A DNA stretch of 64,000 nucleotides from Haliotis rubra (taxonomy: Eukaryota): positions 930,001 through 994,000 of the forward strand of contig NW_025766780.1 of the NCBI RefSeq assembly GCF_003918875.1, read 5' to 3'. The stretch's first letter is position 1; the number at the start of each line of letters is the position of its first letter. Under the pieces are notes generated by a model. That model was given only the letters and a program-made list of their open reading frames with translations. It was not told the DNA's origin and did not search any database. The position numbers and the translations under genes were made by a program. Shown here piece by piece: positions 9,469-59,189 of the stretch.

Positions 9469-9842
9469 AACCAACATCTGATTGGCATAAACTAGATGCA
9501 AATGACGATGTAACTGACAACCAATACCTGATGGGTATACACTGGCTGCATGGGACCATGTAACTGACAACCAATACCTGACGGGTATACACCAGCTGCA
9601 CGTAACCATGTAACTGACAACCAATACTTGATGGGTATAAACTGGCTGTATGTGACCATGTAACTGACAACCAATACCTGATGGGTATACACTGGCTGCA
9701 TGGGACCATGTAACTGACAAACAATACCTGATGGGTATACACTGGCTGCATGGGACCATGTAACTGACAACCAATACCTGATGGGTATACACTGGCTGCA
9801 TGTGACCATGAAACTGACAACCAATACCTGATGGGTATAAAC
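9469..9842. repeat. 50-bp tandem satellite, left block (about 7.5 units)
   Basis: Unit CATGTAACTGACAACCAATACCTGATGGGTATACACTGGCTGCATGGGAC; the first unit is degenerate. Confidence 0.97.
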
Positions 9843-13113: not shown

Positions 13114-13281
13114 AGGTGTCACACACACCCTCACTCAAGAGCACATGTTGTACAGCTCACATGGCATCAGATACAAAAGTCGGATTCAAGGGTGGAAGGT
13201 TATATTCCCTACAGTTACTGGGCGGATTATGAAAGGGTATCATGGAGCGGAATCAGATTCACAAATTACTTCTCTTTAATA
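13114..13281 (-). repeat. BEL/Pao LTR, shared segment of the 3' copy
   Basis: Near-identical direct repeat of 18481-18647, preceded on the minus strand by a PPT-like GGGGGCC. Confidence 0.85.
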
Positions 13282-16200: not shown

Positions 16201-18480
16201 ATTATCAGAGCCAATTAGAATGGTTGGACATACATTGTGTATGTCGGGAAGGGCTGAACCTTGGAGATGAGGGTACTCTCTTTGAAGAGAATCAACATCA
16301 TAGGAGTATTCAGACAGTGCATTATGGGCAGAAGTAAACGCACCTCGAATTGTGAATCTCTCATTTGGCTGATCAAGCGGGGAAATGTCAAACCCACAGA
16401 ATGGCCATGGCAGTCAAAATTTCCACGACGGATTGTATACAGACGAATGCTGGCTGGTGACCTTGATAACTCAAGCTGATTTGTTGTAGACGAAATAATC
16501 ATTGTCCTCATGGACCCTTCGTCAAGAATAGCATAAGTCTGAAAACTGCAGGTAGGACCATGGAGAATGACTGGTACTATTTTCAGTATGATGCTTTCTG
16601 GATTGGTTGGCTGATCCACAAAAAGTTGCTTGACTTTGATATGCTGGAAACTCTCTTTGATGTGATTGTTTGCATCATGTAGTATGGTGAGGTCAAGTTT
16701 GTTACATTTCATGCACAACTTCTTCAGGTTACACTGTTTAGCAGTATGAGCTCGTCCACAGTTCCAACACCTGCGTTTATCTCTCATCCAGTTGACAACT
16801 TCGATCACGGACAGTTTCTGGAAGTCCGAGCATGTGCTAATGTGATGCTGTTTGTTGCAGTAAGCACAATATCCTGTTCGTTGGTTCCCTCTTGCTCCAT
16901 CACTGTTATGGGTAGCCTGTTGATCTAACTTGGAGGTATTTGAGTTGTAGACTGAGGTGGGCATTTGTGGTAACTCCCCTTCATTACTGGAGTCAATGTA
17001 TCTCGTACAGGCTTTGGGGCTTGATACAAACTGGCTGCCTTATGACCAATTTTCTTGGCCCGAGCTGTCAGCTTCAACAAATCCGAGAAGTGAAGAAGAT
17101 TGTAGGTCCTGTCTTTATCCCGACTCAGAATACCCTTGTTCAGGAAGTATTCAATAAATCCATCCCGGTTGGTTTGTGGCAGTTTACTCAAAAGACGATC
17201 TACATGCGACCCACATCTAAGTTCAAAACCGTTGTCACCCTCAAGGGAACGAGCATTCCAACAAGTGTATGTACAGAAAGAGCGAGATTTTCAAATGTGT
17301 CAAAGTCATTGTATCTCACAGTAGGAAGGTTCATGATCATGGCTAGTTCACTTTGGACCAACTGTCTTGGCTGACCATACGTTTCTTTTAGAGCTTGCAT
17401 AGCACTAGTGTAGGGCTTCAAGTCATACAAGAAAGCCTCGGCAAGGCGCCTTGGAGAACCACCCAATCTATCCAGCAACACCTGAAACTTAAACTGCTCT
17501 GACAAATGGACGTGGCTATCTACAATACTGTCAAAAGCCATCTTGAGGATAGCAAAGTCTCTCTCCTTACCATTAAAAAACGATGGCAGTGTAGGCTGGG
17601 GGATTCCGTAGGATGAGGAAACCAATCGTTCTGTCATGTAATGTTGATTAGGAGGCTGTGGCTCTTGGTGAGAAAGAAAGCTTTGTTGAGTATTGGAGTC
17701 AAACCTTGGGGAACGTGTCACATGCTGGACTTGAGGAAGCAAACCAGAATTAGATGGCAAATCGTCAGGTGTATGAGTGTAATTGTCATCAAATCCAGTT
17801 TGGGTTCCAAGTTGAGGATTGATCTTATTACTCAATTCATTATCTGGAAGTAAGGATGTAAACACTGCTGCGTTTGGGTCCAGCAGAGACTCATGAGACA
17901 AGAGCTCAGTTTTAGGTGTCACAATGGCAGGGTTATGATTAAGCAACTGATCAACCAGTTCTACTTCTGCTAACATCCTCTCTTCTTGACGTACCTGCCT
18001 CTTACGGGAGACTTCAATCTGAAAGCGCTCTCTTGCTTTCAAAGCTTTCCTTTCTTGCATCTGTGCCTGAATTCATGCATGAATTATATCTTCCTCTGCC
18101 CTCTTTTGTACCTCAAAAGCCTCATCTTCTACTCTAGCTATCAAAAAATCTAAGTGTCTATCTTCACTCTGCCTACGTTTCAACTCCTCTAATTCAGCAC
18201 GTTTCCTTAATTTCTCAAGTTTTGCAGTTTGCTTTCCTGATAGACTATTATTACAGTGGTAAGACTGCTTGAAGAGTGTTTACTCACATTTGAACTTCCA
18301 GACCGATGTGAAGACTGAGATTTCCTTGACACTCTAGTTGACTTCTGTGATATTAGACTGAGTCCTCCTACTGCTCCTAAATCCTCTTCCAATGTTCCAG
18401 TATGAACACTCTTGTCCTTATTTACATCCTCTGTGTTAGGGATAGGCAAAGTTTCACACACATTGTCCTGAAGATAGGAT

Positions 18481-18647
18481 AGGTGTCACACACACCCTCA
18501 CTCAAGAGCACATGTTGTACAGCTCACATGGCATCAGATACAAAAGTCGGATTCAAGGGTGGAAGGTTTAGTCCCTACAGTTACTGGGTGGATTATGAAA
18601 GGGTATCATGGAGCGGAATCGGATTCACAAATTACTTCTCTTTAATA
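18481..18647 (-). repeat. BEL/Pao LTR, 5' copy (truncated)
   Basis: Direct repeat of 13114-13281 with a few substitutions; no PBS follows it. Confidence 0.85.
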
Positions 18648-19019: not shown

Positions 19020-20630
19020 GGGACCTTCTGATGGGTATACAATGTGACCATGGACCTGATGGGTATACAGCATGTGAAAGTATGGAGTGCACTGGGTATA
19101 CACTGGTGCATGGGACCATGTAACTGACAACCAATACCTGATGGGTATACACTGGCTGCATGGGAGAACTGACAACCAATACCTGATGGGTATACACTGG
19201 CTGCATGGGACCATGGGTGATGTAACTGACAACCAATACCTGATGGGTATACACTGGCTGCATGGGACCATGTAACTGACAACCAATACCTGATGGGTAT
19301 ACACTGGCTGCATGTGACCTGTAACTGACAACCAATACCTGATGGGTAACACTGGCTGCATGGGACCATGGGATGGGTATACACTGGCTGCATGGGACCA
19401 TGTAACTGGCAACCAATACCTGATGGGTATACACATGGGACCATGTAACTGACAACCAATACCTGATGGGACTGGCTGCATGTATACCTGATGGGACTGG
19501 CTGCATGGGACCATGTAACTGACAACCAATACCTGATGGGTATACACTGGCTGCATGGGACCATGTAACTGACAACCAATACCTGATGGGTATACACCTG
19601 ATGGGTATACACTGGCTGGACCATGTAACTGCTGATGGGTATACACTGGCTGCATGGGACCATGTAACTGACAACCAATACCTGATGGGTATACACTGGC
19701 TGCATGGGACCATGTAACTGACAACCATACTGATGGGTATACACTGGCTGATGGGACCATGTAACTGACAAACAATACCACTGGCTGCATGGGACCATGT
19801 AACTGACAACCAATACCAATACCTGGCCTGTATACATGGCTGCATGGGACCATGTAACTGACAACCAATACCTGATGGGTATACACTGGCTGCATGGGAC
19901 CATGTAACTGACAACCAATACCTGATGGGTATACACTGGCTGCATGGGACCATGTAACTGACAACCAATACCTGATGGGTATACACTGGCTGCATGGGAC
20001 CATGTAACTGACAAACAATACCTGATGGGTATACACTGGCTGCATGGGACCATGTAACTGACAACCAATACCTGATGGGTATACACTGGCTGCATGGGAC
20101 CATGTAACTGACAACCAATACCTGATGGGTATACACTGGCTGCATGGGACCATGTAACTGACAACCAATACCTGATGGGTATACACTGGCTGCATGGGAC
20201 CATGTAACTGACAACCAATACCTGATGGGTATACACTGGCTGCATGGGACCATGTAACTGACAACCAATACCTGATGGGTATACACTGGCTGCATGGGAC
20301 CATGTAACTGACAACCAATACCTGATGGGTATACACTGGCTGCTGGGACCATGTAACTGACAACCAATACCTGATGGGTATACACTGGCTGCATGGGACC
20401 ATGTAACTGACAACCAATACCTGATGGGTATACACTGGCTGCATGGGACCATGTAACTGACAACCAGTACCTGATGGGTATACACTGGCTGCATGTGACC
20501 ATGTAACTGACAACCAGACCATGTAACTGACAACCAGTACCTGATGGGTATACACTGGCTGCATGGGACCATGTAACTGACAACCAATACCTGATGAGTA
20601 TACACTGGCTGCATATCATCATGCAGCTGA
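19020..20630. repeat. 50-bp tandem satellite, right block (about 30 units)
   Basis: Same unit as 9469-9842. Very homogeneous at 19840-20480, with fragmented units at 19020-19840. Confidence 0.97.
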
Positions 20631-20654
20631 CTTCAAATACTCTCACAGGTACAG

Positions 20655-25250: not shown

Positions 25251-28200
25251 ACAGTTTGGAAATTTTAACTATAAATTGTATATTTATATATATACAATTA
25301 TTATCTCACGATTTGCACTTCTCTCTCTTGCTTCGATGCCGAGTGGAACGAATTAGAACTTTCCCTGTAGACCTCTCTTATCCATACGCCCGTGTTCCCC
25401 AGGCTGCTTTCCTTATAGGACAGGTCCCTGGTCCCATGCTGAGCAAGCAGCATGCTCCCCTATCTACCCACGTGACTACCTCAGAGTGATCATTCTCTTG
25501 TTGGAGCGAATGACAGTTAACTGTAACCGCCGTAATCTGAGTAGCGGGGAGGCTGGGCGGACATACATCGCGTGAGATAGGATAAGTATATAAAAGTACA
25601 AATATACAATTTATAGTTAAAATTTCCACATTTTTAAACTGACCCTATCTCACAATTTGCACTTTATCCCACGGTTGGACGGCGGGTCGCAGATTACACT
25701 AAGCCAAAAAGCACTGACAGTATACACTGTATAGGCTAATGACAACCGTAGATAGCAAAGAACAAGGGAGGCTGGATCCGACTAGCATAGTACCTATACT
25801 AGTGATGGGTTATCCTGAACCCCTTGGCTTACTAGGTACAATCGCTCCCAAGGAGTGGATGCCCCCAGAGCGATGTGGTGTTCGGCCGCAACCCTCGCAT
25901 ACACAAGGGGACGCAACTAGGCGAGTCACCTCGCTTAGTCACGATTTATCAGAGTACCCCCGTAATTAATGTCTTACGACTAGTAATTGGGCCCGCACCG
26001 GCTTCGAGACAGCCCCCCAGACCCCATCACGAATAGGGGAAAAGGAAACTGAATCGGAAAGGTCACAAGTTTAACGTTCAGTACCAGAACACCACCACAT
26101 GGTTTCCACTACTTACCACAGTAAGACCACAACGGTGTGCTGAGGTACTTAGGAACTAGAACACTACGAATTCCAAAAAGAAATCAGGAAGGACTACACT
26201 GACGTGACTGCTCAGTGGAGTGGAGGTCAGCAAGCGAGATTGTCGAACACTTCTACATCGCAAATACAAGAACTAACCACTGTAGATCCGTATAGACACT
26301 AATTGCAATAACCCAATAAAATTGAGTGAAGAGTTCTAATCCCAGAAGAATCGAGAACAAAAATCAGAAATATAATTCAGAATTTTATTCAGTATGTCCA
26401 CGAGAGCAAATGCATAAATGCGCACTGTACTCATCTGTGTTGATGGGCCGACGATAGCTGCTGTGCCAAGACAAGGGGTCGAAACTGGTAGCAAACCCTG
26501 GACGCCAGTGACCGATAAGTACCTCAGATAATGTGAGGAAAACATTGTATCCGAGCACCAAAAGCAGCCCTCCATGATTTGCACAGTTGCTGTGTAAAGC
26601 CATCATAGAAGCTAATGCTCAGGTCTCGTGTGGATTGGATGCTGCTGGGGGTGGCAATCCAGCAAAGGCGTACGCCCTCAGTATGTTACACGCATCCAAA
26701 AGGACAAAGTTGTCCGTGAGACCTCAGCCTTGGATGTAGTAGACAGCGGGATGAATAGCCTCTTACCACGAAGACGGCGGCGCTCTTGGGAGGCATCTAG
26801 GAAGATACGTAGAGCTCTGACAGGGCAGAGAGACAAATCTTCCAACATCATGTGGCCCAAGAATGGTTGACAACGGTGGGATGGTAAACATTCTATCCGG
26901 TTGTCCTGGTAACTGGTTCTTTGCGACAAAGTCCCAACGCAGTCCCAGAAAAACTCTGCCATGACGTTTTCATTCAAAACACACACAATTCACAACCAGT
27001 GCATGTAACTCCGAAATATGAGCTGCAGTAGCTAATGCTACTGGAAAGAAAGTCTTGAACATTATCTGTTCAAACTCCTTATCATGTAGTGGCTCATATT
27101 CACTGGATACCAAGTGACAAATCCCATGCAGGAGGTCTGAACCTCCTAGACTGGTCAGCAAGTCTGAACGAACGCAGCAGATACTGGAGCTCTGGAGTAG
27201 TTGACACCTTGGTTCAAGTAGTCGTGGCAAGAACTGAATTATGGTAGCCAAAAAGGTTGACAATGTAGTTTTTTCGTAGCCCGTAAATGCTGCAGAAATT
27301 CCGCAACAACCTGAGGTGATGCAGTGGTGGGAGAATTAATTCTCCTAATTCCACAGTAATTTCTTCCATTTATCGTCGTACAACGATCGGGTCGATGTCC
27401 TATGCGCAGATGTTATAGCTGTAGCTACTCTGAGAGAGTAACCCTTGGCTATCAGAGATTTCTGTAAATGCGCCATACGTGCAGATAAAGTGTCTGTGAT
27501 GACCCGTGGTACAAATCCGAATGTGGATGATGAAGTAGGTCGTTTCGGGCTTGTAGCGGTACTGGACCAAAAGCAGACGAATCTTGCTGGTTGAAAGTAA
27601 CTTTTGAACTACCTTGGGTAGCAGAGCCGGGGGAGGAAATGCGTAAGCTTTTAGACCCTCCCATGATATGGCTAACGCGTTGTGGTCCCACTCCTGAGGA
27701 TCCGGAATTGGGGACACGAACCATGCGAGCTGATGGTTGTACCAAGTGGCGAATAGATACGGGTAGATCATTGACTGGAATATCAGGGGCAGTAACTTCC
27801 ACTCAGTTGGTGATGGCCGTTTGGGGCGTGACATGGCGTCGGCTATGACATTCCTCGCCCCCGGAATGTGTCGGGCTCTGGCCATAACGTTGAGAGAATC
27901 GATTAGATGGTAAAATCAAAACGTCCACTGGAGCAGAGCTGCCGAACCTGTCAAGCCTTGATGATTGATGTACCATACTACTGTCGAGTTGTCTGATTGA
28001 ATCAGTAGATGGGACAACCGGAGTTCTGCCGCCCAATGCTGAATGTCGAGAATGACAACACTAAATTCCAACGTTGATGTGAAGGGCCTTTTCTGCAGAT
28101 GACCACTGCCCGGCCACTTGATGATGAATCACTCTTATGCCCTTAAGAACAAGGATTTATCTACCATTACTCTACCTCCTCGTCCATGCTTATTACAGTT

Positions 28201-28712
28201 AGTAGTAGTACAATGGGGATTCTGCATCACTTTGTGTTGTAAGGGTTATATTTGTGTCTGAATCCGCTCCCATCGATGATGAAAAATGGGTGTGTTGTCT
28301 GTGTGACTATCGTTGGATATGTCCTTGTTTAAAAAATAAAAAAATAAAAAAATGTTTCCTACAGGGATTCAGGCGCCAAAACTCAATATCCAAAGTCCAG
28401 CATGTCCCCTTTACACCAGCAGAGCCAGCGTCCTTGTTTTACATGTAGTCCTTATATTGAGTGACGATTTTATGGATGGGGTCTGTCATAAATTCCTCGA
28501 AGAAGGCTAAGGAGTAGGTCAAGTACGGGTCGGTGCGGTATCGGGTTTCGAGGCTATAATTGACTAAAGTATCCATGAGACGCTGTAACCGTTCGGTACC
28601 CACGAGACCTAAACTATCGTACAGGGTGGTGAATATCGAGCCCATGGACGTCTGAAATACCATTTCTCGATCAATGTTCACATGATGATGATAGCTATAT
28701 ATAGACGTATCT

Positions 28713-29691
28713 TTAATAAGGCGGTAATACCGTGTCGTCAGGGGTGATTTGCAATTCCTCTCTGACGAATCCCCTACCTGGCCCCTCTTTCAAGTAGTAC
28801 AAATGGGGTTCATCTTCTTTAATATCCATCCGATCGATAAGATACGTTTTAACGGACCATACAGGGTCTGTGGCACAACATTTATCCCCTCCTTCGAGTT
28901 CACCGGGCTGGTACAGATACCTCACGACAACCCGGTCTGGTAGTTTTTTCTTTTTTCCGTGATGTGATGGTGCAGCTGATTCAGTCGTGACGGATTTCAT
29001 TTTTATGGCTCCAACAGGTCTTTTATCGATGAGTCTAGTGACTTCGTTGTTGATTGCCGACACCACTCGCGGTAAGCGCACAACCCAACCCATTCCATAT
29101 TTCTGCTTCCGGGGTTTACCATCTCTTGGGCATACTGATGTCCAAACAAATGCTCAGCTAAAGTCCTGTTAAATCTTTCGACGATGGCTTGGCTTCGGTG
29201 AGCTCCGGCCACGCCTGTCTCACCTGGATTTGGTGTTTCGACAACAGCTGTGATACAGCTCCCATGAACTCGCGTCCAGGATCGACTTGTAATTCGGTCA
29301 GCCAGGTCAAGCGATTGCGTTTGTAGATGCATTCTAAGGCCTTAGCGACTAGACTCGAATCTTTGGTCATTAACGGCTCCGCTTCCTTATAGCAACTGGC
29401 AACGTCCACGATGGTCAAAGCATACTTATACGTTTTGTTTCTCACCCTATCATGCGGTAGAAACAGGAGGTCGGCTTGATGGGTACGATTGGGTATTGAA
29501 ATGTCAAACTTTCTTCTCGGGATATATCGGGGAGCCGGCAGGTAAACTTGCCAGATAGCTTGTTTTTTAAGCCGAGCTTTGGCGGTATCCTCGGAGACTT
29601 GAGCGGCTTGGCTAGCTTCGGGATGGCACCCACACCTTTCCAGGAACCCCGAGGGCTGTAGTAAACCTTCTCTATGATTCATGTAGTTCAA
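28713..29691 (-). pseudogene. Polinton-type rve integrase, frameshifted
   Basis: HQADLLFLPHD...YALTIVDVAS, LQVDPGREFMG and QAIVERFNRTLAE give the D-D-E residues across three ORF pieces. Confidence 0.88.
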
Positions 29692-29810
29692 GCTATTGTC
29701 CGTTCAATTGTTGTTTTTTTCGCTAGGGACATAATAGACTGTCTAGTCCTCAACGTGCCGAGTGGAGTTTCATATATAGGGGGGTCTTAAAACTCCCAAC
29801 TCGTCAAGGT

Positions 29811-30975
29811 CTAGACAGACTGTTGGTATCCATAGCCATAAGTGTGGATACCATCGTTTGAAATCCATCGTTTGGTATCCATGGGCAACAGAGACGTTTT
29901 GTTTAGAGTGATTCCGTAGATTTTGTGTTTATCACTTCTCAACGCATTCATTTGGTGTTTGAACGTGCGTTTATCGAAGAGAGCCTGTTTGAAGAGGGTG
30001 TGCTTGATGTGCTGTTTCACCACGTATTTCTTGACCCTTTTGGATTTTTTGATTTCGTCGTCGGCTTTCTTGATGGAATACATTTTAGGTCTTAATCCGA
30101 CGTATTCCGTGATGGGTGTCCCAGCACATTCGTCTTTCATCTTGCCGAGGACCTTTTTATTGGTCGTATTGTGCAGGGCGTGGTCTTGGGGGTAATCACT
30201 CGTATCGTACAGGTGGATGTGTTTTGCCATGTCCTCGTAGACGTCCTCCGTATGCATTTCAAATCCACTTCGAACAGGTATCCTATCTCGAAGTTTTCGG
30301 GGATAGCAATAATGTTTTTCGCATTAAAATTTTCTAAGTTAAAGCATTCGAACCCCCCTGTGGGCAGATACTGACTCATAGCCCAGCCATACAAATTGTT
30401 GGCATCGAGGAAGAGGATGTGGTTGGAGGGTTTACTCCAATCGTAGCCTTCGACGTATGGGTTGCTGGCTTTAGCTTAGCGTTTGGAGACCACCGAGATC
30501 CCGCCGCGCATTCCTTTCTCGATAAACAGGTGCATGTCGTAATCCGTTAACAATTCCAATTTAACTCTGTTTTTATTTTAACAAGGCATCCCACGAGAGA
30601 CTGAGGCCTAGTTTCTCCCACATGTTATGAGCGTGAGTCGGTTAAGATGCTGTAAAAGCAGTCGATGGGAGGTAATCGTGTCTCCTCGAACTTAGACCAA
30701 TCGTCCATGTACTCATACAGGTACACCCCCTTTTTTAACAGCAGATGTCGAGTCGCTGCGTCGGTGTATCGATGGGTGATGGTGAAGGTATCATTTGCCT
30801 TCACCAAACTGTCGAGCGATGACAGGAGAGATTGAGCACTATCGATAAATCTCAGACTGTTGAGTGAGAAGGAAATGTATTTTTCCATGTTGTTGGGGAT
30901 GCACGTTAACTTGCCCTCAATCTTCGAGATGGCCTGCATGATCAGTTGGGCATCATAACCTCCCGGGGAATCATG
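29811..30975 (-). pseudogene. Protein-primed family B DNA polymerase, internally deleted
   Basis: GYDAQLIM, LRFIDS, KGVYLYEYMD, GMRGGIS, LDANNLYGWAMSQYLP, NKKVLGKMKDE, GLRPKMYS. The central part and N-terminus are missing. Confidence 0.9.
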
Positions 30976-30989
30976 AGCGGTGAGCCCGT

Positions 30990-31600
30990 TCAACTGTTAC
31001 ACGCGATCGATAATACGTCGGGACGACTCGAAGTCGCTCTCTGCAATCTCGTGTATTACCCACGATGGTCGAAAATCAGTCAATCTAGAGGGAACAACAG
31101 GCTATACATCGATAGCAAACGCCATGATTTGTCCGACGGTTATTACAGTGATTGTACGCTGAAAGATGACATTTTCAAACCCATTGGAGCCCATCTCAAA
31201 CTCAACGAATCGAATGGCACGCTGACGTTAACGGACGGGGGAAAAACCCATTCGACTCGGTAGACCCTTGGCGAGAACTCTCGGGTTGTCGTCGAACGAA
31301 ATACGACCACGAGACACAGTAACGGGCTGGAAATTACCGAGCCTCGTGGTCTGTCACGAGGTGTTTGTTCATCTCGATCGGGTAAGCACGACCGATAATA
31401 TTCAAGGCGAACGCCCTTCCACGCTGCTAAGAGCCATGCCGGTGAAAACAGAAGAGTGCAACGACGGTCGTTTTCTACCCTGCAGTACAAAAAGTTAACG
31501 CAGGGCATGATCACGGAATTGAAAATTATCCATTTTAGATATAAAACATAAACCGGTGTATATGGAATATCTTAGCGTCACACTGCACGTAAAACAATGA
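30990..31600 (+). pseudogene. Probable minor capsid (penton-like) protein of the Polinton/adintovirus
   Basis: GRLEVALCNLVYYPRW...DGYY...VFVHLDRVSTTDNIQGERPSTLLRAMPV...QYKKL...VTLHVK has the pattern of Polinton single jelly-roll minor capsids. Frameshifted. Confidence 0.6.
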
Positions 31601-32229
31601 CTCAAGTTTCTGGTCCTGGAACAACCATGCGCCTGAGAAAATGCCCTACCATCGCGATCTTCGATCTCAGGGACACGCGAGGATTCGATGAACCCGGTGT
31701 CGAAGGCAAGTTATACGCCTTAGAATTAAGAAACAACGTTTACAGGCGAACGGAAGTGAGCGGTGGTGGTAACCTAGGAGATTTAGACGATGTCATAACC
31801 GGAGGTCTCATAAAAAACATGCAGTACAATCTCGTCCTCAACGACAATAACACGATTTATATATAGAGAGACGTCAACGCTTATGCGAGTCTCAACGGGG
31901 TGACTCACAATATATATTTTACCTCCAAAAAATCCATCTCATCAGCTTAAAGTTTACGCACGAAAAATTGTCGGAAAACCAATTGAAGGCTCTTCCCTAA
32001 TACAAGTATAACCATGGGTGACGTTTCAAACCTGAGTTCACAGGCCACCACTGCGTTCTCAGATCTCGAGGACACGCGAGGATTCGACCAACCCGGTACG
32101 GAAAACACCTTATACGTATTGCACTTACAAAACAACGTGTACCAACGACGCGAAGTGATCATCGAATCTCAGTTGAACTGGATTATTAATCTTGTCCTGA
32201 CCTACCCTGGATTATTAATCTTGTCCTGA
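31597..32229 (+). pseudogene. Viral protein with an internally duplicated ~35-aa module
   Basis: DLRDTRGFDEPGVEGKLYALELRNNVYRRTEV (31597 ORF) and DLEDTRGFDQPGTENTLYVLHLQNNVYQRREV (32014 ORF). Confidence 0.55.
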
Positions 32230-32239
32230 CCTACCCCCT

Positions 32240-32760
32240 ATGTTTCGTTTGCGCCAAATCAGCGAGATCAGACGTCAACTGGAACAAGAATGCAACTTGC
32301 GGATCGGATTACACAAAAAATACCATAGGGCCACTAATGCTCTGGACGGTGTTGACACTGCCCTGATAGTAGCCAGCATGTGACTTGGCGCGGCTGGCGT
32401 CGGCTTAATATCGACCATTATAGCCGCCCCCGTCGTCCTCGGGTTAGAAATAACAGCCGGGATATCGGGACTGGTGGGAGTAGCCCTTAAATTCATTTCA
32501 CGTCAGCTTCAACGTAAAGCATTTAAAACACAATGAAATCAGGCTTCTAGCCGAAGCGAAGTTAAACACGATCGATGATCATATCCCGACAGCGATCTCT
32601 GATAGCAAAATCTCCGAGGAAGAGTTTCGTCTGGTGATGTATGAAATCGCCAAATACCACAGAATGAAACAGGAGATTCGAACCAAGTCTAGGAAAACCG
32701 CTGACATCAGCGAAGAGGAGAAAAAAAAAGTTGATAGAACAAGGCTGACAGCAAATCATT
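32240..32760 (+). pseudogene. Adintovirus-type two-helix membrane protein (GasderminX-like)
   Basis: KKYHRATNALDGVDTAL...GVGLISTIIAAPVVLGLEITAG...KHNEIRLLAEAKLNTI...AISDSKISEEEFRLV; one stop and frameshifts. Confidence 0.6.
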
Positions 32761-32802
32761 CAAACCTTCCTTACCAAGAACATAGATCTCATCAAAGATT
32801 AA

Positions 32803-35800
32803 CTCTTTCAACACCAGTCAACCAAAGGCTTTTACTGCCATGACACCGAGTTCCCAGAGACTCTGAGGTCATAGATGGAGCATATGTTTATCAAGGAAAA
32901 TATCAGCTTGTAAAACATTATTGCTTCTACATAGCATACACCATTTGAAAGGTCTAATCCTACTGTTTATAAATATGAAATTTATTTTTGATCATATTAT
33001 CCAAATAATCCAACTTCAACGTAAATAATTAAATTTTTAATGAAAATGCAAGCTTAAAAATTTATAATGTCCAGATAATCCACGAAGGGAGCAAAAAATG
33101 CGGCAATTTTTTCCATTTGTAACATGTCATAATATCCCCTTAACCTTTTCTTCTATAATTCATTTTTACGTAATCGGAAAATTATTTTAACTCATTAAGC
33201 CCGAGAGCCCCATCACTACTCAACACCTGGAAGCCCTCGCTGATTGCCCACTCTCTGTGCCGAGACTAATTAGTGCTAGTCACACCTGATTTCCCTGGCA
33301 GGTTTCGGGGATCACAGGAAACTGTCTAGTCGTACAAACAAGTCCTGATTGTTTAATTGTGTCGTAAAGATACATGTTGAAAGAAATCAGGTGTGAATAC
33401 ATGTCGTGTATTGCAAGCTTTATGTAATTTTATTGCAAGTTTCTCTTGTAGACCTTTTGTCGGCTTGTACATTTATATTTTATCACAATATGCATACACA
33501 TGTATTCTTTGTATGTAACAGATGAGACACACGTTAACAAATTCTCTCTCTTATATCATTGTGTGAGGTTTAAATTTACAAAACATCTATGACAATGACA
33601 TACTGTAAAGAAGAATTTACTTTCATACTTTATAATCTTGGACGAATATAGTGGTTTTGCCGATACATTTCTAGTGTTTACGAATTATTTTAATGAAAGT
33701 ACTTTAACGCTAGTCTTTGACTAGCACAAAGCACATTCATAGCATTGCACTTTATTTCATACAGATTTAATGCAGAAAACATACGTGACCATACAAACAT
33801 ACATATACAAAATGTATACTACATATTCCTTGCATAGACATAAAACAAAGAGTCACGTGATAGGGCGTCATCAAATTTCCCGAATAGAACGTTCGGTATC
33901 TCAACTGTTCAATGAAGTGGCTGGTCATATGTTATCTGCGACCAATCGTATCATGAGATACCTGTCACAGAGGAAAGGACAGGTGATGGGGCGTGGGCGA
34001 AATTTCTGTAGAGCACGTTTGGTCACTCAGCAGCTTGGATAGAGATTGGTTATTGGCTATATCCATGACCAGTCGATATGCTGGGTTTCGGCTTTATCAA
34101 CTCAAGCTATCATGTAACAGTTTGGGGATTGTAAACATACACACTGGTAACGATGTATGAAATATACACATAAGACAAATAGGAGTAGATAGTCACTTTG
34201 GCGAGTTTATTTGTCCTCATTTTAGTGTTTTTCGATAAGTAAAACAAAGCGATTGAAATCCAATCACTGAGTAGAGGTAGTATTTATTTTCATATACATT
34301 TTATGCACACAACTAGTACATAAAACATAATGGTTTGCTGCACATGTAAATATAATCTTCACCTTGATACGAATGACTATCCAAACTAGAGTACACGCAT
34401 TACAAAATCCACGAGGTGACACTATACTGAATTATTATAGTGTATAAACTTGCAGTTGACACCCCCCACCCCCAATATTTATGAAGGTGGGCGTGCCTAT
34501 ATCTTTACTGAATGCAAACGAGGTTCATAAGATTACAGATGTGCATGCATGTATAAACATCACAGAGAGGGGCGTGACTCCATAAAGCAAGATGTCCAAT
34601 GATATAACAGCGCGCATCTGTTTATTTTACACTTGTCACGGGACAAACCTTTCAACAAGGACGTAACTACATATGCATTCTACCGGAGGCTGTTATTTCA
34701 AGGTGGAAAGAGGCTTTCAATTATCTCATTACTGTAATCTGCTTGAATGATTATACGCATGTGTATCGATACCGTAACTGATATACTATCCAGCTTTTAT
34801 TGACGATAGATCAATAGAGACTGAGTTGATTGATACACGTGATAATTGCACCGGATTGGATAATTACACAGATCAAATACAAACGTTTTACAGAATGCTC
34901 ATGTAAATTGCATAGAAAACTGACAATTCAAATCAACATGAAACTTTCAACAGCTTGAACAAAAATGCTTGAAATACCTCTGTATGGCTTACATGTAATA
35001 ACTTATGATACTACTTCTGTCCATGTGTGACAATGTTTTGAATTACCAACTTACTGTCTTTTGTAACAAACGTAGTAAAAGATTTCATTGTTGTAATAAC
35101 ACTGACATGTATATATGTATTCGCTGCAAAGGCGCGTCTTATCAATTTATATTCGCTTAGGTAACATTACAAACTTTAGATTATGGAAAACAACTAGTTA
35201 CAATTCAGTAAACTTCAAATTAGTAAGTTCAATTATGTTTAATCTATTGGAGCTTGGATGTATAATTACTTGTGTTTAATGTTTAACGTAATGATGCCTA
35301 AAAAGTAAATTCAAACTATTCTATTGTGTTTGAATTCTTTGTATGTCCTTGAAATTTCGTATATTGTTTCCTATTTATTAGGTAGTTGAAGGAAATATAA
35401 TTTTTAGTAACCTCTAAAACATTACATTTAATTCAATCAAGGTGCATACGAAGTATTTTAGTATCCATTCACAAGGAAGAGTACCAGGCACTTACCTCTG
35501 TAAAAACATCATAATCCCCTTGCTCGCCGACATGCGTTTATTTGCTAAACGCTGTATAAGCCTATGATAATGATTAGCAATTGTTATCAAAACACTTTAA
35601 ATACTTCTTCTGATTGATACTAAAGGTGGGATCTCTCGTAAGAAAAGCTAACATTTGCTCAGTACTGCTAAATTGGTTGAAATAATAGGTACAGTGCGAT
35701 TTTTAAAAGTGCAACACACATGTGCGTCTTTTGCTGAATAAGAGGTGCTTTCTGTTGACAACTGTATGTGGCTCTCGCTGTGAGAAACTGCTAATTACCT

Positions 35801-36360
35801 GCCCCATAAACACGTCACTCGCTGTGAGGAGCTGATTAATTTGCCCTATATATGCGTCTCTCGGCCTTAATGAGTTAAAAAAGATTTCTCAAATAATATG
35901 TATGGTCGTCTATTTCCCGATATCAGCGACTTTCCGCTTGGTTACATGATACAACAGTGGGAAATACCTGTGTTTTCGAAGCTTCGTATGAATAACATGT
36001 GAGGCGATTCGTTTGATGGCGGGTATCGTTCGCAAGCTCTGAACATCAACAATATCACTGTACCCTTGCCAAGAGTATTTTCACAGTTGTAAGAAGTGAT
36101 TTTATTGGATAAAAATTGGTTTCTAATGACTCTTTTTCGCCATAGTCTGATATAAGCATCGTGATTAGTCAAAATCTTACACGTGACCTAAGGCAGCCAA
36201 TCATATTACAGCAATGTATACCGTCCTCATTAACGAAAATTAATGCTTAAAACGAAAGTTTTGGGTAAAATCACGCTATTCTGAACGTGTTACGCAATAA
36301 ATCACCACCTATACGTATATTATGGAGCTTAGTGGACCTATCGTCCTAGGTTATGACCTG
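32803..36360. mobile_element. Non-coding TTAA-anchored repeat (piggyBac-like end), copy 1
   Basis: Begins TTAA|CTCTTTCAACACCAGTC. It is colinear with 40702-41472 once the 33191-35874 insert is removed. The other terminus was not found. Confidence 0.7.
33191..35874. mobile_element. Non-autonomous TTAA-specific (piggyBac-like) element
   Basis: TIR CTCATTAAGCCCGAGA / TCTCGGCCTTAATGAG with TTAA on both sides. The empty site is present in the paralog near 41085. Confidence 0.9.
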
Positions 36361-37646
36361 TGACTAAAATGCTTCATGCATATATTTTACCATTCAACAT
36401 TGTGTCCGAGCGCGAAGTTTGAGGCGACGAAAGCCCAGATGTCACTTGAATTACAATACACGATTGCTCAAAAAGATGGAAATAGTAAGTTATAATGTAC
36501 GTTTGACAACTTTTATGAGCACTGTTGTGGGTTTTATTCTTCAGTTTATTCAGTTTGTTTAATTATTTTCTCGAAACATTGTTACTTTGCTCTTTGACAA
36601 CTTTGCTGTGGACCCTTGCCAAAGCATGTGTCCGAGAAAGGTATTTTCCAATAACATTGCGAAAAAATAGTTCTTAATTTTAATGCTGTCGATAATATAT
36701 GGTCATTTGAAATTTAATAAGCTTTTTCAGACATTGTGAAAAGTGATAGATTTAATAAAACAATTATATGTTAGTTAGGTTCCTAAAATTATAGATCATT
36801 TTGATGCGACTACTGCCTGGCCGTTGAACTGTTTTGTAGATATTAACATAGAAAGATAGAAAGGTTCAAAAAGTAGCAAAACGTCCCCAGCAGCCACAAT
36901 CCATGATTTTAGAATCGGTTTTCATCAGCTTGGAAGGCGCATTAGCTATTTATAGCTCTAATGCACTGACACCAGCAGAGCCAGTCTGCTGGTGTAAAGG
37001 GGACAAGCTGGACTTCGGATATTGAGTTTTGGCATTCGAATCCCTGTAGAAAACATTTTTTTTATCATTTTTTTTAAAACAAGGACGCATCCAACGATAG
37101 TCACACAGACAACACCCCATTTTTTATCATCGATGAGGGGGATTCAGACACAAGTAACCCCTACAACAAAATGATGCAGAATCCCCATTGTACTACTACT
37201 AACTGTAATAAGCATGGACGAGGAGGTAGAGTAATGGTAGATAAATCCTTGTTCTTAAGGGCATAAGAGTGATTCAGGTCATTTAGTGATCTGCTCAAGG
37301 GAAGCTGTAACTTTTCAACAATCTATGCTTGGACATGACATGGCTCAACCACATCATAACTACCCTCCGGGGTAGAAATGTCCGAACGCCCAGGAGGCGG
37401 CAAAGGGATGTTCGCCTGAGATGAGACAACCAGTCGGCTAGCCGAGGCAGCAGGTTCTGATTGCAAATAGCATCCAGCCTGGCATTGATTCCAAGCAGCC
37501 GTAATTGTAGCAGCATGGTGTCCAAGTCCAGCGTCAATGTGGATTCCTGTGCTGGATTCCAAGATTCAGATGTCATGCGAGATCCAGAAGGTTATATCGA
37601 TGCGTGAGACACCCCTGGATCCGAAATAGGTTCATGCCTAGAGGTA

Positions 37647-38377
37647 TAGTTTGGCATGAAATGCATGTGGACCCGTTTTTTGTAAATATCTCTTCATCCA
37701 ATGACCCAATCGATCTCAAACTGTGCAAGTAGATGTTTTGTCAGACAACCTAATCACATTGTAAATCACCGTTTTTATGCATTTGTATTAAAGAATCTGT
37801 CTATGTAACTGTCAACAAAATAAACAGCAGACCGCAGACTGCTTGCAGAGGGAGGGAGCCAATGACCTGTAACAGCAGCAGTGTTGGGTCATAAAGGTCA
37901 ACGTTCGTCAATGTAGGTCAGCTATGTACGTTTCATGTAATCCGACACCTTATAAATCTGTTTGCTACGTTTGCTCTCTTTTTAAAAAAAATTCAACACA
38001 TTTCTAATTAAACGTTTAGCATCATCTGAATAAGCTTTCATGATGACAGCTAGAAGTAGTCAATGTGAATGATCCAAACGGTCTATCACTGTGCAGTGCA
38101 TAGGTAACTATCATGAACTGCACGTGCATTTACCTTTATGACCTAACACTGCCGCTGTTACAGGTCATTGGCCCCCTCCCTCTGCAAGCAGTCTGCTGTT
38201 TATTTTGTTGACAGTTACATAGACAGATTCTTTAATACAAATGCATAAAATCGGTGATTTACAATGTGATTAGGTTGTCTGACAAAACATCCACTTGCAC
38301 AGTTTGAGATCGATTGGGTCATTTGATGAAGAGATATTTACAAAAAAACGGGTCCACATGCATTTCATGCCAAACTA
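37647..38377. mobile_element. Fold-back MITE with ~250-bp TIRs and TAG...CTA ends
   Basis: 37647-37899 is the reverse complement of 38132-38377, with TA on both flanks. The TAG/CTA ends recall Academ, but the superfamily is unresolved. Confidence 0.85.
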
Positions 38378-39570
38378 TAGTGTAGTATGGGTGTAACAAT
38401 ACGGCAATACAGTATCGTATCCCGATACAAGGCCCATGATACGATATATCGATTTGAAGGACGTGTATCGCGATACATACGATACATTATAAATACTCTT
38501 TATGTAAATTTTAGTTTCACAAAACTGTGATAATTTTCAAAGGTATTAAGCGAAATAAAAGCGAACCTCTCCTGAAACAAGACATTGGGGTTTCTCAATC
38601 TATAAATAGCGGACTATTCCCCGCTTGCCCAAACACTGTCGGTGATTTCTGTCCCGTTGTAACAAACTACGATCTCAAAAACATAGAATGAAATATTATT
38701 TTTGAAACAAAGGGCAAATTCATGATTTGTTTGGCGACTAATAATGTTTTTTAAAAAATGACTTCAGTTACCCACAAATCGCTACACAAATATGCATGTG
38801 TATTGCACAGTGTACACAAACAAAATGGCTGGGGCAAGTACAGACGATCAACAGAAAATAACAAGGCTTTTAGACCCACCAGCTATGTATAGGGCAGCAA
38901 TTTGGCCAACGTTTGGTTTTGAGGCTATTGATGATAAAGCAGGAGTTTCAGCTCTTGACAAGAGCAAAGTTATTTGTAGGCACTGCCGAATGTCTGTCAA
39001 GTATTCGGGGAACACGACAAATCAGACAACCCATATGCAGCGACATCATCCCGAAATTCTTGTGAAAGTTGAGTCAGGCAAGACAGTAAGTGACACCTCA
39101 AATACATCAGGTCTTGCCAAAGGCATATATCATTACACAGTCCAAACTAAACTTTGACAAACAGTTAAATTTCACTAGTAGTCGATCACAGGCAATAACA
39201 AGGTTGATTGCAGAATTTATAGTGAATGACTTACGACCTTTCTCAGTCGTTGAAGATGAAGGTTTGAAACGCATGGTGCATATGTTAGAGCCGAGATACA
39301 AACTTCCTTCTCGTTCCTACTTTTCTGATAAAGTTATCCAAGAAATGTACTTAGAGGTCAAAGCACAACTGGAACAAGATTTTAAGGCAGCCCAGTCAGT
39401 GAATGTGACATCAGATGGTTGGACTTCAAGAAACACTGAGTCCTATGTTACTGTTACCTACCACTTTACTTCACTTGTTTGGAAAATGCTCAGCTGTGTG
39501 CTTGAGACAGAAATTATGAGTGAATCTCATACTGCTGAGAATCTGGCTAATGCATTACTGAAATGTTTCA

Positions 39571-39669
39571 CTGACTGACTGACTGAGTTTGGTTTTACGC
39601 CGCTTTTAGCAATATTCCAGCAACATCACGGCGGGGAACACCAGAAATGGGCTTCACACATTGTGCCCA
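39571..39669 (-). mobile_element. 5'-truncated SINE/LINE 3' end with a (CAGT)n tail
   Basis: TSD TGAAATGTTTCA (39559-39570, 39670-39681). The body GAGTTTGGTTTTACGCCGCTTTTAGCAATATTCCAGC resembles a common abalone interspersed repeat, from recall and unverified. Confidence 0.75.
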
Positions 39670-40252
39670 TGAAATGTTTCAGTGATTGGAACATCAGTGA
39701 AAAGACTTTTGCAGTGGTTCCTGATAATGCATCGAACATGGTGGCTGCCATGGAAATGCTGCCTCAACATCGCATGCATTGCTTTGCTTACACTCTGAAC
39801 TTAGCTTCACCAAGAGCTATGAAAGTAGCAGCTGTCTCCAAAGTACTGGCCAAAATTCATCGGGACTGTTACTTTCTTTCACAAAAGTGCGATTGCAACA
39901 CGTGTTCTGAAAGAGAGAAAACTCTTGCTTAATTTACCTGAGCGCAAGATAAAAATGGATGTGTCTACTCGATGGAACAGTTCATACGAGATGGTCCAGT
40001 GTTATCTAAAACAACAGCCTGCAGTTCATGCGGCTATGCTCAGCGAAGAAATCAGAAAAAACCCAAAGTGATCTGGCAACTTTCACAGACAGCAACCTCA
40101 CAGCTGCTGAAGATATTGTTGTGGTAATGAAGCCAATGAAGACAGCAACTGTGGCATTTCAATGGTCAGTCCCCTCTATCAGAAACTACTGAACGACCTG
40201 TCACCAAAACCAGATGACAGTTTTGTCACAAAGGAAATTAAGTGAATTATGC

Positions 40253-40613: not shown

Positions 40614-40701
40614 AATTACGCACACAGATCTACAGTCGAGATATAAAGGTAAGGTTAAGGGAAATACATTACAACAGTAAATAACCTGAAACATTAATTA
40701 A

Positions 40702-41472
40702 CTCTTTCAACACCAGTCAACCAGAGGCTTTTACTGCCATGACACCGAGTTCCCAGAGACTCTGAGGTCATAGATGGAGCATATGTTTATCAAGGAAAAT
40801 ATCAGCTTGTAAAACATTATTGCTACTACATAGCATACACCATTTGAAAGGTCTAATCCTACTGTTTATAAATATGAAATATATTTTTGATCATATTATT
40901 CAAATAATCCAACTGCAACTTAAATAAGTTAAGTTTTAATAAAAATGCAAGCTAAACATTTATAATGTCCAGATAAACTATAGAGGGAGCAAAAAATGCA
41001 GCGATTTTTTCCATTTGAACATGTCATAATTATCCCCTTACATTTTTCTTCTATATTTTCATTTTTAGGCAATCGGAAAATTATTTTAAGAAAGATTTCT
41101 GAAATAATATGTATGGTCGTCTATTTCCTGTTTGATGGCAGGTATCGTTCGAAAGCTCTGAACATCAACAATATCGCTGTACCCATGCCAAGAGTATTTT
41201 CACAGTTGTAAGAAGCGATTTTATTGGATAAAGACTGGTTTCTAATGACGCTTTTTTGCCACAGTTTGCTATAAGGATCGTGACTGGTCAAAATCGTACA
41301 CGTGACTTAAGGAGCCAATCATATTACAGCAATGGATACTGTCCTCATAAACAAAAACTTAAAAATTCAGACGAAAGTTTTGGGTAAAATCACGCTATTC
41401 TGAACGTGTTGCGCAAAAAATCACTACCTATACATATGTTATGGAACTTAGTGGACGTATGGGTTATGACCT
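40702..41472. mobile_element. TTAA-anchored repeat, copy 2, in the hAT intron
   Basis: Diverged direct copy of 32803-33190 plus 35879-36360. Confidence 0.75.
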
Positions 41473-42411
41473 GGTTCTGACATGAAATTGATACGCATTG
41501 CGATACGCTGATCGAAAACCGGTATTTCGACATGCATTCGGAAAACTTCGTAACTTTTGGAAATCTTCGGATTTCCGTTTTTCACACCAGAAGTCAAGTT
41601 AAGTTCGGTTTGAAGGTGTGTTCTTAATTTTTGTTCAAGTGATTCGGAATGCTTTGGATCTGAATGTTTTAAATATTTAGTAATTAATGAGCAGTCAAAT
41701 ATTAATGTACAATGAAAAAAGCATAGCAATATTTCTATTTTTCAGGTTAAACTGGAACATGAAGGTTTTGATGGCAGTGATGTGGAACTGCCTTTGCCTC
41801 TGCTGCCAGAGCTTTCAGACACGCCAGAAGATGCTGAAGCTGACACTTTTGCAGGGCTTGACTCAAGTTCAGATTCATCTCCTGATAAGTGAACAAGCCT
41901 GAAAGTGGCAGTGTTCTTCATGAGATGTTTGGGGAAACATTGATTACAAAAGTTGAAGTGAAGCAGAAATCATCTATTGAGATTGCTCAAGATGAAATTC
42001 TTTGTTATCAGAATGCAGACATGCCTCATCTAAACAGTTGTCCACACAGATGGTGGAGTGAAAATTCTATTTATTTTCCAAAGCTTTCAAAAGTTGCTAA
42101 AAGGTACCTGAGTGTACCTTCTACATCTGTACCCTACGAAAGGGAGTTTAGCACTGCAGGTGATAATGTCACGGTTCAAAGGTCTGCACTTAAGCCAAAA
42201 CATGTGAACAGACTGATATTTCTCAAGAAAAATCTGAAGTTTCAGTGATTTGAAATTTGTGTTGCCTCTTGGATTAAAATTACGAGTCTTACGATGCACC
42301 CATAAAATCCTCTGCATCATATGACGAGAAATCAAGATTGGCCAATCATTGATAGATTTCTTGATCTGATGATCTGATACAGCATTCTAGCTCTGTCTGA
42401 TATATGATGTG

Positions 42412-50900: not shown

Positions 50901-51418
50901 AAAATGAGTAAGTCAAGTTAAGTTCTTTCAGAAAAAACCTAAATTATGTTTCAATTATCATAAGCTTCTTCAACCTTCTAATAATGTAATTTTTTTAGTA
51001 AAATTGATATTTTATACTTATCCTGACTCATGCTCTTTTGCTTGTCTTCTTCTTCTTGCGAACATAGTGGAACACTTGTATCTCCTTAATTGAAGCTCCC
51101 TTCAATGTAAAATCACTAATTGGTACTCACCAAGAGTTGCCTCCCTTGCCCCTTTTGGCGGGAACAGGTGTCGCCACCCTCTGGCCTCATGCTTCACTCT
51201 CTCCTGATTTTGCGAGCCCAACACTTGAACTTACAGGGAAATCCAAAGTGTTATGTGGGGAGGATGGGAGGGCTAACCTCATGAGTCAGGATAAGTATAA
51301 AATATCAATTTTACTCAAAAAATTACATATTTTTCCTTATCCTGACTCATGCTCTTTTTGCTTGTAGAATCCTACGGAAACGGAGGTGGGCAAAACAGAA
51401 TACTTTGGATTTATAGAA

Positions 51419-58700: not shown

Positions 58701-59189
58701 CACAATATTGATGTATGAAAGAACAAGTGACCATGTGAATCTGAACGAAGCAAGAAAGTACATGTTCTCTTCGAAGGGTAGAGCAATAGAAAATATACCT
58801 CCAACATCTGCAGCTTTCAAAGAACATGTTAAGAGAGCAGTTTATCAGGGAGGACATATATGGGGACAGTCAACCATCCGTTGTCCTGATCTGCCTGATC
58901 CATCCAAATGGGGTTGGCAGCGCAATGCATCCAACATGTGGGAGCCCTTATGGTCAACAATACCAGACGTGTCAAAGACCTGTCAAGAACTGTTGAAGTG
59001 TCGCTGCACCAAAGGCTGTTGTGGCAGATGCAAGTGTCTCAAAGCTGCCCTCAAGTGCACTGCACTGTGTCTTTGTGGTGGAGACTGTGCCCAATAATGT
59101 GGTCATATGTTGCTCTGAGTAGGTAAGTGAAGAAATCCCCAGATGAATATTATTCATGGGAATCTGGATTAGGTTTACGCTGACTCCCA

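Follow-up and report, generated by a model that had tools for sequence, protein, structure and literature searches.

Inverted arms enclose an 8.5-kb insert

The locus consists of two long inverted arms that enclose an insert of 8,540 bp (hereafter the cargo), with a decayed retrotransposon gene on the left (Table 1). We analyzed it within a 64-kb window, the whole stretch of Haliotis rubra DNA under study. In a self-BLAST of the window the arms aligned as inverted copies (E 1e-112), as the original prediction had claimed, and 267 of 293 columns (91%) were the same in a global alignment. This identity is uneven, with 99 of 100 columns alike in the outer zone, 127 of 150 in the middle and 41 of 43 at the inner end (outer vs. 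middle zone, Fisher p 5e-5). Removal of the cargo and one copy of a 16-bp direct repeat at its borders does leave the expected palindrome of ~590 bp with a 5-nt loop. In the reconstructed empty form, the loop is closed by 21 perfect pairs, and folding of 582 nt with DNA parameters gave -287.5 kcal/mol. The loop sequence lies both after the left arm and before the right arm, which is most simply accounted for if one hairpin was split; from this arrangement we infer that an empty hairpin once stood at the locus.

Empty copies of the arms were absent from the window by self-BLAST, and exact arm patterns had 0 matches in metagenome contigs and viral contigs, collections that may lack the host. Against 81 Polinton loci, the arm gave matches at chance level only; a similarity of 10 bases at the beginning of locus L081 was put down to chance. 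The joint expected of the empty hairpin (28428->36985) was not among the 15 contig joints listed of 522, which is weak evidence.

Table 1. Features of the locus, in window coordinates.
Feature	Position	Strand	Remarks
Left flank, DIRS-like retrotransposon, decayed pol (RNase H end)	27400..28127	-	tblastn E 4e-49
2-bp target-site duplication AT, left copy	28128..28129		flank comparison
Left arm of foldback element	28130..28423	+	starts CAC; self-BLAST and alignment
16-bp direct repeat, copy 1	28413..28428	+	last 11 bp of stem plus 5-nt loop
Filler, 13 nt	28429..28441	+	reverse complement of 37075-37087; shared base on left
73-aa open frame	28442..28660	-	stop codon is the last three filler bases
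Polinton-type integrase relic	28713..29703	-	three reading frames; Pfam rve E 3e-8
Protein-primed DNA polymerase B (pPolB) relic	29811..30963	-	three pieces; relatives carry PF03175
Decayed accessory genes, probably Polinton	30970..32229	+	tandem pair of diverged frames (31576, 31987)
Broken Polinton accessory gene, 174-177-aa family	32231..32802	+	E 1e-28 (L015), 1e-18 (L081)
Nested repeat X	32803..36821		follows a TTAA (32799-32802); right edge somewhere in 36821-36831
Nested repeat Y, inside X	33191..35874		short TIRs and TTAA duplication
147-bp cargo tail	36822..36968		probably Polinton DNA continuing from 32802
16-bp direct repeat, copy 2	36969..36984	+	exact match to copy 1
Right arm of foldback element	36985..37271	-	ends GTG; outer end contig-bridged (X1 record 8)
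2-bp target-site duplication AT, right copy	37272..37273		flank comparison

The insert holds Polinton relics and nested repeats

The cargo had been described as 8.5 kb of virus-derived DNA. This is not supported, because 4.0 kb of it consists of nested TTAA repeats; the Polinton-like part amounts to ~4.5 of 8.54 kb (~53%), 4,521 bp being left without repeats X and Y. A second copy of repeat X (93% and 88% identical) lies at 40698-41473 and lacks repeat Y. The contig comparison covered four of the seven listed runs (X4, X6 and X7 were left out): the empty form of repeat X, a joint 32802->36822, was seen in 3 of the 4, and empty-site joints of repeat Y (33186->35875 and 33188->35878) in all 4. 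The cargo tail is reached in contigs by the same 32802->36822 joint and by another, 32636->36822. Its depth at 36958 is ~9-12x single copy, and it has no protein match against the 81 Polinton loci.

The integrase relic covers amino acids 9-339 of the 346-aa integrase of Polinton L015 and matches 61 of the 81 pPolB loci, with no match among viral contigs. Its pPolB neighbor lacks the N-terminal half and two internal stretches; compared with three natural relatives, 361-373 of 1214-1264 amino acids are covered at 59-66% identity, or ~30% of a pPolB. Among the decayed accessory genes, the stretch 30970-31465 weakly matches a 277-aa L015 protein (E 6e-4 and 0.002), and the two tandem frames share a repeat that is 73% identical over 112 nt. 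The 174-177-aa family occurs in 4 of the 81 loci. Apart from these two accessory genes, the other L015 proteins, including the ATPase and the central genes, had no match in the cargo at E up to 0.01 (the L015 capsids are not identified by name). The stop codon of the 73-aa frame lies inside the filler, so the frame may be cut at the junction; relatives were found in 0 of the 81 loci, a protein search gave no candidates, and Atlas matches were weak and below the recognition mark.

Together, a pPolB with PF03175 relatives and a Polinton-type rve integrase mark this DNA as Polinton in origin, and the pPolB, integrase and accessory relics share 50-66% identity with elements like L015. Polinton/Maverick elements end in (AG)3 or (AGT)2 and are flanked by a 6-bp duplication (PMC8097293). 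In contrast to them, the cargo has no such ends and an incomplete gene set, with no match to the ATPase or to another central L015 gene. As anticipated, neither a TIR nor a 6-bp duplication is common to its two ends. The order of genes also departs from theirs: the integrase is on the same strand as pPolB, whereas it is on the opposite strand in all 42 relatives that have both. The decay of the cargo is likely to be older than its capture, since outer arms that are 99% identical, set against frameshifts and large deletions in the cargo, fit the capture of a dead relic.

A tip duplication and a filler mark the inner junctions

The direct repeat at the cargo borders, ACACCAGCAGAGCCAG, is exact in both copies, in agreement with the original prediction. 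The cargo was also thought to begin with 12 bases copied from the right arm. The match is real and longer than proposed, running for 13 nt from 28429, or for 14 nt (28428-28441, reverse complement of 37075-37088) with a shared G. Arm matches of at least 13 nt occur at only 2 of 63,237 other positions in the window, and the filler match is far beyond chance. A 10-nt version of the filler stands in direct orientation in the left arm (28321-28330), and an older state of this arm could therefore also have been the template. The filler could instead be donor DNA, if the donor adjoined another arm fragment. Neither end of the cargo has a poly(A/T) run (sequence at 28429 and 36968).

Outer ends and flanks

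When the outer flanks were compared at lengths of 1 to 8 bp, a direct repeat was seen at 2 bp only, the 3-bp flank being one base off. This AT duplication comes from a single locus, for which an empty site was not seen, and a 2-bp repeat is expected by chance in ~1 of 16 cases. The termini, CAC (28130-28132) and GTG (37269-37271), are those of CMC/EnSpm elements. According to PMC12730594, the CMC/CMCT group (EnSpm/CACTA, Mirage, Chapaev, Transib) is characterized by CA..TG ends (CAC..GTG in EnSpm), a 2-5-bp duplication and a DDE transposase with C(2)C and H(3-4)H motifs. Unlike those elements, the present one is non-coding, lacks a transposase and is a full foldback. Judged by its ends, this low-copy, gene-less foldback is likely to be a non-autonomous transposon of the CMC/EnSpm type.

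The left flank was identified by tblastn with the window's own intact RT-RNase H frame, which we take to be DIRS-like from the layout of the retrotransposon; this pol had no match among viral contigs. On the right, a weak minus-strand match to amino acids 362-401 of the same pol, just upstream of the part matched by the left flank, was equalled by 2 of 40 shuffles. In a second comparison that frame was reached by 49 of 300 shuffles, while another, better-scoring frame (amino acids 410-446, 3 of 300 shuffles) overlaps the region of the left flank; a further search of the right flank against this pol gave no match. Collinearity of the two outer flanks is no more than suggestive.

Contig support and copy number

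The left junction is bridged by contigs in two samples (X2 record 11, 28289-28498, 0 differences; X5 record 27, 28282-28622, 7 of 341 bases different), so it is not an assembly artefact. The right outer end is bridged without differences by X1 record 8 (37247-37669), and an artefact is ruled out there too. No contig spans the right inner junction among the 32 pieces listed, beyond which there are 66,175 further pieces. The left-junction contigs run unbranched through the junction, with depths of 5.3 in X2 and 17 in X5, vs. 4.6-8.1 and 10.5-15.8, respectively, for the other low-depth pieces listed. Among the rows listed in these two runs they are thus at single-copy depth, which gives no sign that the composite has moved. 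A paralogue could account for the X5 contig, although its 2% difference also fits an allele in another sample. The proposal of a Pack-type element able to move viral genes is not supported, given this depth at the bridged junction and the broken state of every matched gene.

MITEs are short, non-coding, TIR-bounded elements with a target duplication and a high copy number. The inferred ~590-bp empty form, short, non-coding and bounded by TIRs and the AT duplication, has the structure of a MITE. Its copy number does not agree with the MITE label previously given to it: the right-arm bin has a depth of 3.4-6.5x single copy at 85% likeness (about 3-7x), vs. 5,354-19,420x for the bin of the neighboring MITE, summed contig depth being a rough measure that overstates copy number.

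Repair-mediated capture as the best explanation

We favor, with a probability of about two in three, a single-copy product resembling a Pack-TIR, in which repair pasted a decayed Polinton segment once into the broken or stalled tip of the foldback. The original prediction had invoked templated repair of a cruciform tip. Templated-repair insertion exactly at the tip is indeed the best reading, but fork stalling or gap repair would fit as well as cruciform cleavage. A palindrome of ~590 bp with its 5-nt loop would have been present at the site beforehand, and its tip would have broken or stalled a replication fork. The left end may then have halted at the loop, copied 13 nt of its own arm and switched to a donor at another site, after which synthesis would have returned to the element at a point 11 bp short of the loop, leaving 16 bp duplicated. 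By abolishing the hairpin, the insert would have stabilized the locus. No donor for the cargo was found within the 64-kb window.

Among the junction classes listed for repair-mediated TE insertions is one that combines filler with a 4-21-nt duplication and lacks a poly(A) tail (PMC2671141, Table 1). Most single-copy Pack-TIRs of animals are attributed to gap filling that is independent of transposition and takes place at fragile sites inside the element (PMC8277862), and palindrome centers are known break sites (PMC1851657). The largest unequivocal repair duplication measures 619 bp (PMC2671141) and the largest human Pack-TIR 3.6 kb (PMC8277862). At 4.5-8.5 kb, the insert described here exceeds typical published cases, which counts against the repair reading, as do the lack of an empty hairpin and of a contig over the right inner junction among the rows listed, the lack of a donor in the window, and the weak case for collinear outer flanks.

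The locus has the structure of a Pack-TIR, an insert between two parts of one TIR element with both termini present. A Pack-TIR should also have an identifiable parental copy of its insert elsewhere in the genome; the window contains none. The search of Tan et al. (2021, PMC8277862) was limited to inserts of 100-5,000 bp; the present insert measures 8,540 bp now and 4,521 bp without X and Y, and the figure at capture depends on whether these repeats were already part of the donor or were later arrivals. As in the animal single-copy Pack-TIRs described there, both TIR halves flank a foreign insert, the breakpoint is internal, little or nothing of the element is lost, and gap filling at a structure-prone site is proposed. 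Those elements carry host sequence, whereas here the cargo is mobile-element debris, beyond the 5-kb limit, at the exact apex and with a 16-bp duplication. The multicopy Ssk-FB4 of Drosophila, from the same source, is also a capture inside a TIR element with rearrangement-prone arms, and one of its junctions likewise holds a de novo insert; unlike Ssk-FB4, which is amplified and protein-coding, our locus gives no sign of amplification or of an intact known gene. Repair duplications in TEs (Pace et al. 2009, PMC2671141) likewise have filler DNA and a short target duplication but lack poly(A), and chimeric templates are reported for them. They average 162 bp and come mostly from within 5 kb, whereas this insert spans kilobases with no donor in the window. 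Human PATRRs (PMC1851657) are palindromes of similar size with the breakpoint at the center; they differ in being AT-rich, in not being transposons and in resolving as translocations. Among the paper titles listed, we found no Polinton captured in a MITE or foldback, which is not proof of absence.

The duplication and filler are accounted for equally well by a transposition-dependent, abortive gap repair, in which the element excised and both ends were re-synthesized from a sister copy: the left end would have stalled at the hairpin and switched, and the right end would have read 11 bp past the loop, so that a 16-bp overlap arose with no cruciform cut. This route is listed in PMC8277862 and suits the nearly identical outer TIRs, which suggest that the family may have been active recently. 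Section 8 of that source leads one to expect larger deletions and breakpoints near the ends, whereas here the break lies at the exact center of an inferred element that is otherwise complete, and we regard this explanation as unlikely. Quite unlikely, in our estimation, is a mobile composite, a multicopy Pack-TIR of the FoSTeST type that was captured elsewhere and transposed here as a 9.1-kb unit, with sister copies. The intact outer TIRs and 2-bp duplication would suit it, as would the X5 contig if paralogous, the few other near copies over the low-depth cargo positions 29714 and 30336, and the arm depth of 3-7x single copy. Against it stand the unbranched junction contigs at single-copy depth, the allele-like difference of the X5 contig and the inflation of copy number by summed depth. 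It is similarly doubtful that a CMC-type foldback captures DNA time and again at a fragile apex and, as a multicopy Pack-TIR with virus-like cargo, has brought Polinton DNA to at least two loci. If the composite did prove mobile, the scrambled Polinton layout would reflect multiple template switches during a single repair event.

That two separate truncated copies flank an older Polinton relic, without ever having formed one hairpin, is very unlikely. The merely suggestive collinearity of the outer flanks would allow it, but a rare element would be needed twice, 8.5 kb apart, both copies would have to end at the apex or 11 bp from it, and matching AT flanks occur at the outer ends only. Target-primed retroposition, with a chance landing at the loop, would make the 16 bp an ordinary target duplication (within the 4-21-nt range of PMC2671141, Table 1); this we hold to be highly improbable, as the cargo lacks poly(A/T) at its ends, has genes on both strands and contains nested DNA repeats, the arm served as template for the filler, and the exact landing at the loop would go unexplained. 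The arms fall within the length range of Maverick TIRs (46-1,447 bp, PMC8097293), an AGT run stands within the arm (28201-28209) and the interior derives from a Polinton, so that they might be seen as TIRs of a gutted Polinton/Maverick. This reading is hardly tenable, and was rejected both for the ends and for the internal AGT run: the termini are CAC..GTG rather than (AG)3 or (AGT)2, and a 6-bp duplication is absent from both places. The mini-hairpin and 16-bp repeat would also be left unexplained.

Implications

On the best reading, the capture is a known kind of accident, unusual only in its Polinton cargo and exact-apex position. Under repair-mediated capture, the locus would be a natural example of the route from a break at the center, through gap filling, to Pack-TIRs, with tip position, filler and duplication directly legible. 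Host repair could relocate dead Polinton pieces without their own integrase, and a relic relocated in this way between long inverted repeats need not be annotated as a Polinton with TIRs. On present evidence, the composite does not transport functional viral genes. Should sister copies turn up between different flanks, or should further captures prove to have occurred independently at this apex, the family would offer a testable model of hairpin-driven gene capture.

Structure and class of the foldback element

The two arms of the foldback element were described as inverted copies and are indeed so (267 of 293 alignment columns identical), with no further arm copies in the window. Identity is uneven, at 99/100 in the outer, 127/150 in the middle and 41/43 in the inner zone (outer vs. 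middle, p 5e-5), suggesting that the differences in the middle are probably older than the insertion here, or that the outer part was homogenised afterwards. The 16-bp direct repeats around the cargo are exact, and the inferred empty form folds as a single stem with a 5-nt loop, both as originally described. The observation that the cargo begins with bases matching an arm also held: this filler measures 13 nt (14 including a shared G), and just 2 of 63,237 window positions give an arm match as good. The opposite cargo end matches the arms over 4 bases only.

The element starts with CAC and ends with GTG, and AT lies on each flank. These features match the CA..TG ends and 2-5 bp target duplications of the CMCT group (excerpt of PMC12730594), so that a non-autonomous CMCT member is likely, an assignment made from termini and flanks at one locus. 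The original label of MITE had to be dropped: the right-arm bin lies at 3.4-6.5x single-copy depth vs. 5,354-19,420x in a neighbouring MITE, ruling out high-copy MITE identity (pPolB bin, 322-521x; repeat Y bin, 1,294-3,127x; the single-copy reference is one contig per run and summed depth does not equal copy number, only the contrast being meaningful). On its left, the foldback borders the RNase H end of a decayed pol (E 4e-49) that we take, from its layout, to be DIRS-like. On its right, the flanking DNA could be the upstream linker of this DIRS-like element, its match falling below significance in sequence comparisons of this flank.

Positions of features in the window
Feature	Position	Details
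Foldback element	28130-37271	
Arms	28130-28423, 36985-37271	
16-bp repeats	28413-28428, 36969-36984	
Filler	from 28429	left cargo junction
Integrase-pPolB spacer	within 29700-29810	
Diverged tandem frames	31576-32236	two, in Polinton relic; 73% alike over 112 nt
29-bp tandem duplication	32178-32235	exact; in Polinton relic
Repeat X	32803-36821	inserted after TTAA
Repeat Y	33191-35874	nested in X, with TTAA duplication
Repeat X, second copy	40698-41473	
Second foldback element	37645-38379	about 735 bp, beginning some 370 bp to the right of the first; arms 94-100% alike, spacer about 210 bp
hAT-type transposase	38762-40071	broken; weak Hermes DNA-binding domain match
Gene region	49114-59097	DNA-transposon-like; weak DUF6589 match; frames 49760-50911, 56286-57455, 57439-59097
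DIRS-like RT-RNase H frame	51577-53619	intact, 680 aa
DIRS-like inverted repeats	51007-51205, 55934-56131	199 bp, 99% alike
50-bp satellite arrays	9469-9843, 19093-20640	one shared unit; larger array scrambled mid-array, partial units
Pao/BEL retrotransposon	13114-18647	168-bp terminal direct repeats 13114-13281, 18481-18647, 97.6% alike

A cargo only partly of Polinton origin

The cargo had been described as virus-derived. This is not true of its whole length (8,540 bp), of which about 4.5 kb resembles Polintons and the other 4.0 kb consists of repeats X and Y. The integrase relic is spread over three frames, the protein-primed DNA polymerase B (pPolB) relic consists of three pieces that together span 29-31% of natural pPolB proteins, and its closest named relatives are from marine invertebrates. 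The closest layout reference is a near-complete Polinton-like element (L015:655-14114) with an open pPolB (1176 aa, part of it resembling endonuclease VII), an integrase and an A32 ATPase. Two accessory-gene relics in the cargo match this contig; its ATPase and other central genes have no cargo match. As predicted, the cargo has neither TIRs nor a 6-bp duplication, the marks of Polinton-type integration, and no poly(A) was found at its ends. The whole element as a Polinton failed both end tests and gene tests.

The cargo integrase follows pPolB head to tail on the same strand, whereas in Polinton relatives it lies on the opposite strand (tail to tail) in all 42 loci with both genes, among 81 examined. 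Depth drops sharply in the spacer between them (460 at 29714 vs. 13,637 at 29673, run X1). Together, these data fit a rearranged, low-copy derivative; rapid non-coding divergence or a family-specific layout would look alike.

Junctions in public sequencing runs

Junctions and copy number were checked once, in contigs of four of seven public runs (X1, X2, X3 and X5; 3 samples, 2 studies). The output, listing 15 of 522 joints, 32 of 66,207 pieces and 24 of 6,247 loose ends, shows presence, not absence. The left junction is real: a 210-bp contig from X2 spans it with 0 differences, and a 341-bp contig from X5 does so with 7. These two contigs have the depth of other low-copy pieces, and each continues without a break past the arm end, from which we infer that a near-identical empty hairpin is not abundant in X2 and X5; diverged ones could be present. 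A contig from X1 spans the right outer end, and the right inner junction was absent among the 32 pieces listed. At 36958, X1 and X3 carry the window base at about single-copy depth, and X2 and X5 do not carry it. All four runs contain joints without Y, and three of them a joint without X. It should be noted that positions 30336 and 30343 carry a non-window base in all four runs, at about 1-1.5x single-copy depth; this base may be an allele, an assembly error or a donor copy, and it counts against a simple picture.

Neighbouring elements

The window is dense in decayed retrotransposons, DNA transposons and satellites. The second foldback element, whose depth in each of the four runs is thousands of times the single-copy level, is an ordinary high-copy MITE, directly followed by the hAT-type transposase. 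The large gene region, presumably Academ-like, is split by a retrotransposon that we also take to be DIRS-like and that probably inserted recently.

Probable capture by repair at the foldback tip

The original prediction invoked a tip break and templated repair, and capture by repair at the tip is indeed the most likely history. A foldback element of ~590 bp would have inserted at the present site, and its tip would then have broken or stalled a replication fork. Using its own arm as template, the free end would have gained 13 nt before synthesis moved on to a dead Polinton segment at another site, and rejoining 11 bp before the loop would have duplicated 16 bp. Breakage at palindrome centres is established for PATRRs (excerpt of PMC1851657), and filler with a 4-21-nt duplication lacking poly(A) is among the types of repair-mediated insertion into TEs in Table 1 of Pace et al. 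(PMC2671141). Tan et al. (PMC8277862) attribute most single-copy Pack-TIRs of animals to gap filling at fragile internal sites, independent of transposition. The near-perfect outer arms and exact 16-mer, set against a heavily decayed cargo, suggest that the Polinton DNA was already dead before capture.

The tip break itself is the part of the prediction that sequence cannot separate from gap repair after excision of the element, which yields the same junctions and which we consider unlikely. Since the X5 left-junction contig could be a paralogue, we also keep among the readings a composite mobilised as one unit, with slightly less credence still.

Foldback and cargo work like a single-copy Pack-TIR (the class of Tan et al. 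2021, PMC8277862) or a repair-mediated duplication, a likeness drawn here by structure, as Pack-TIR membership formally requires a parental copy. In a narrow search of literature listings, no earlier description of a foldback with Polinton DNA at its apex was found. The foldback element and its cargo are most likely a one-off repair product, the cargo being dead.
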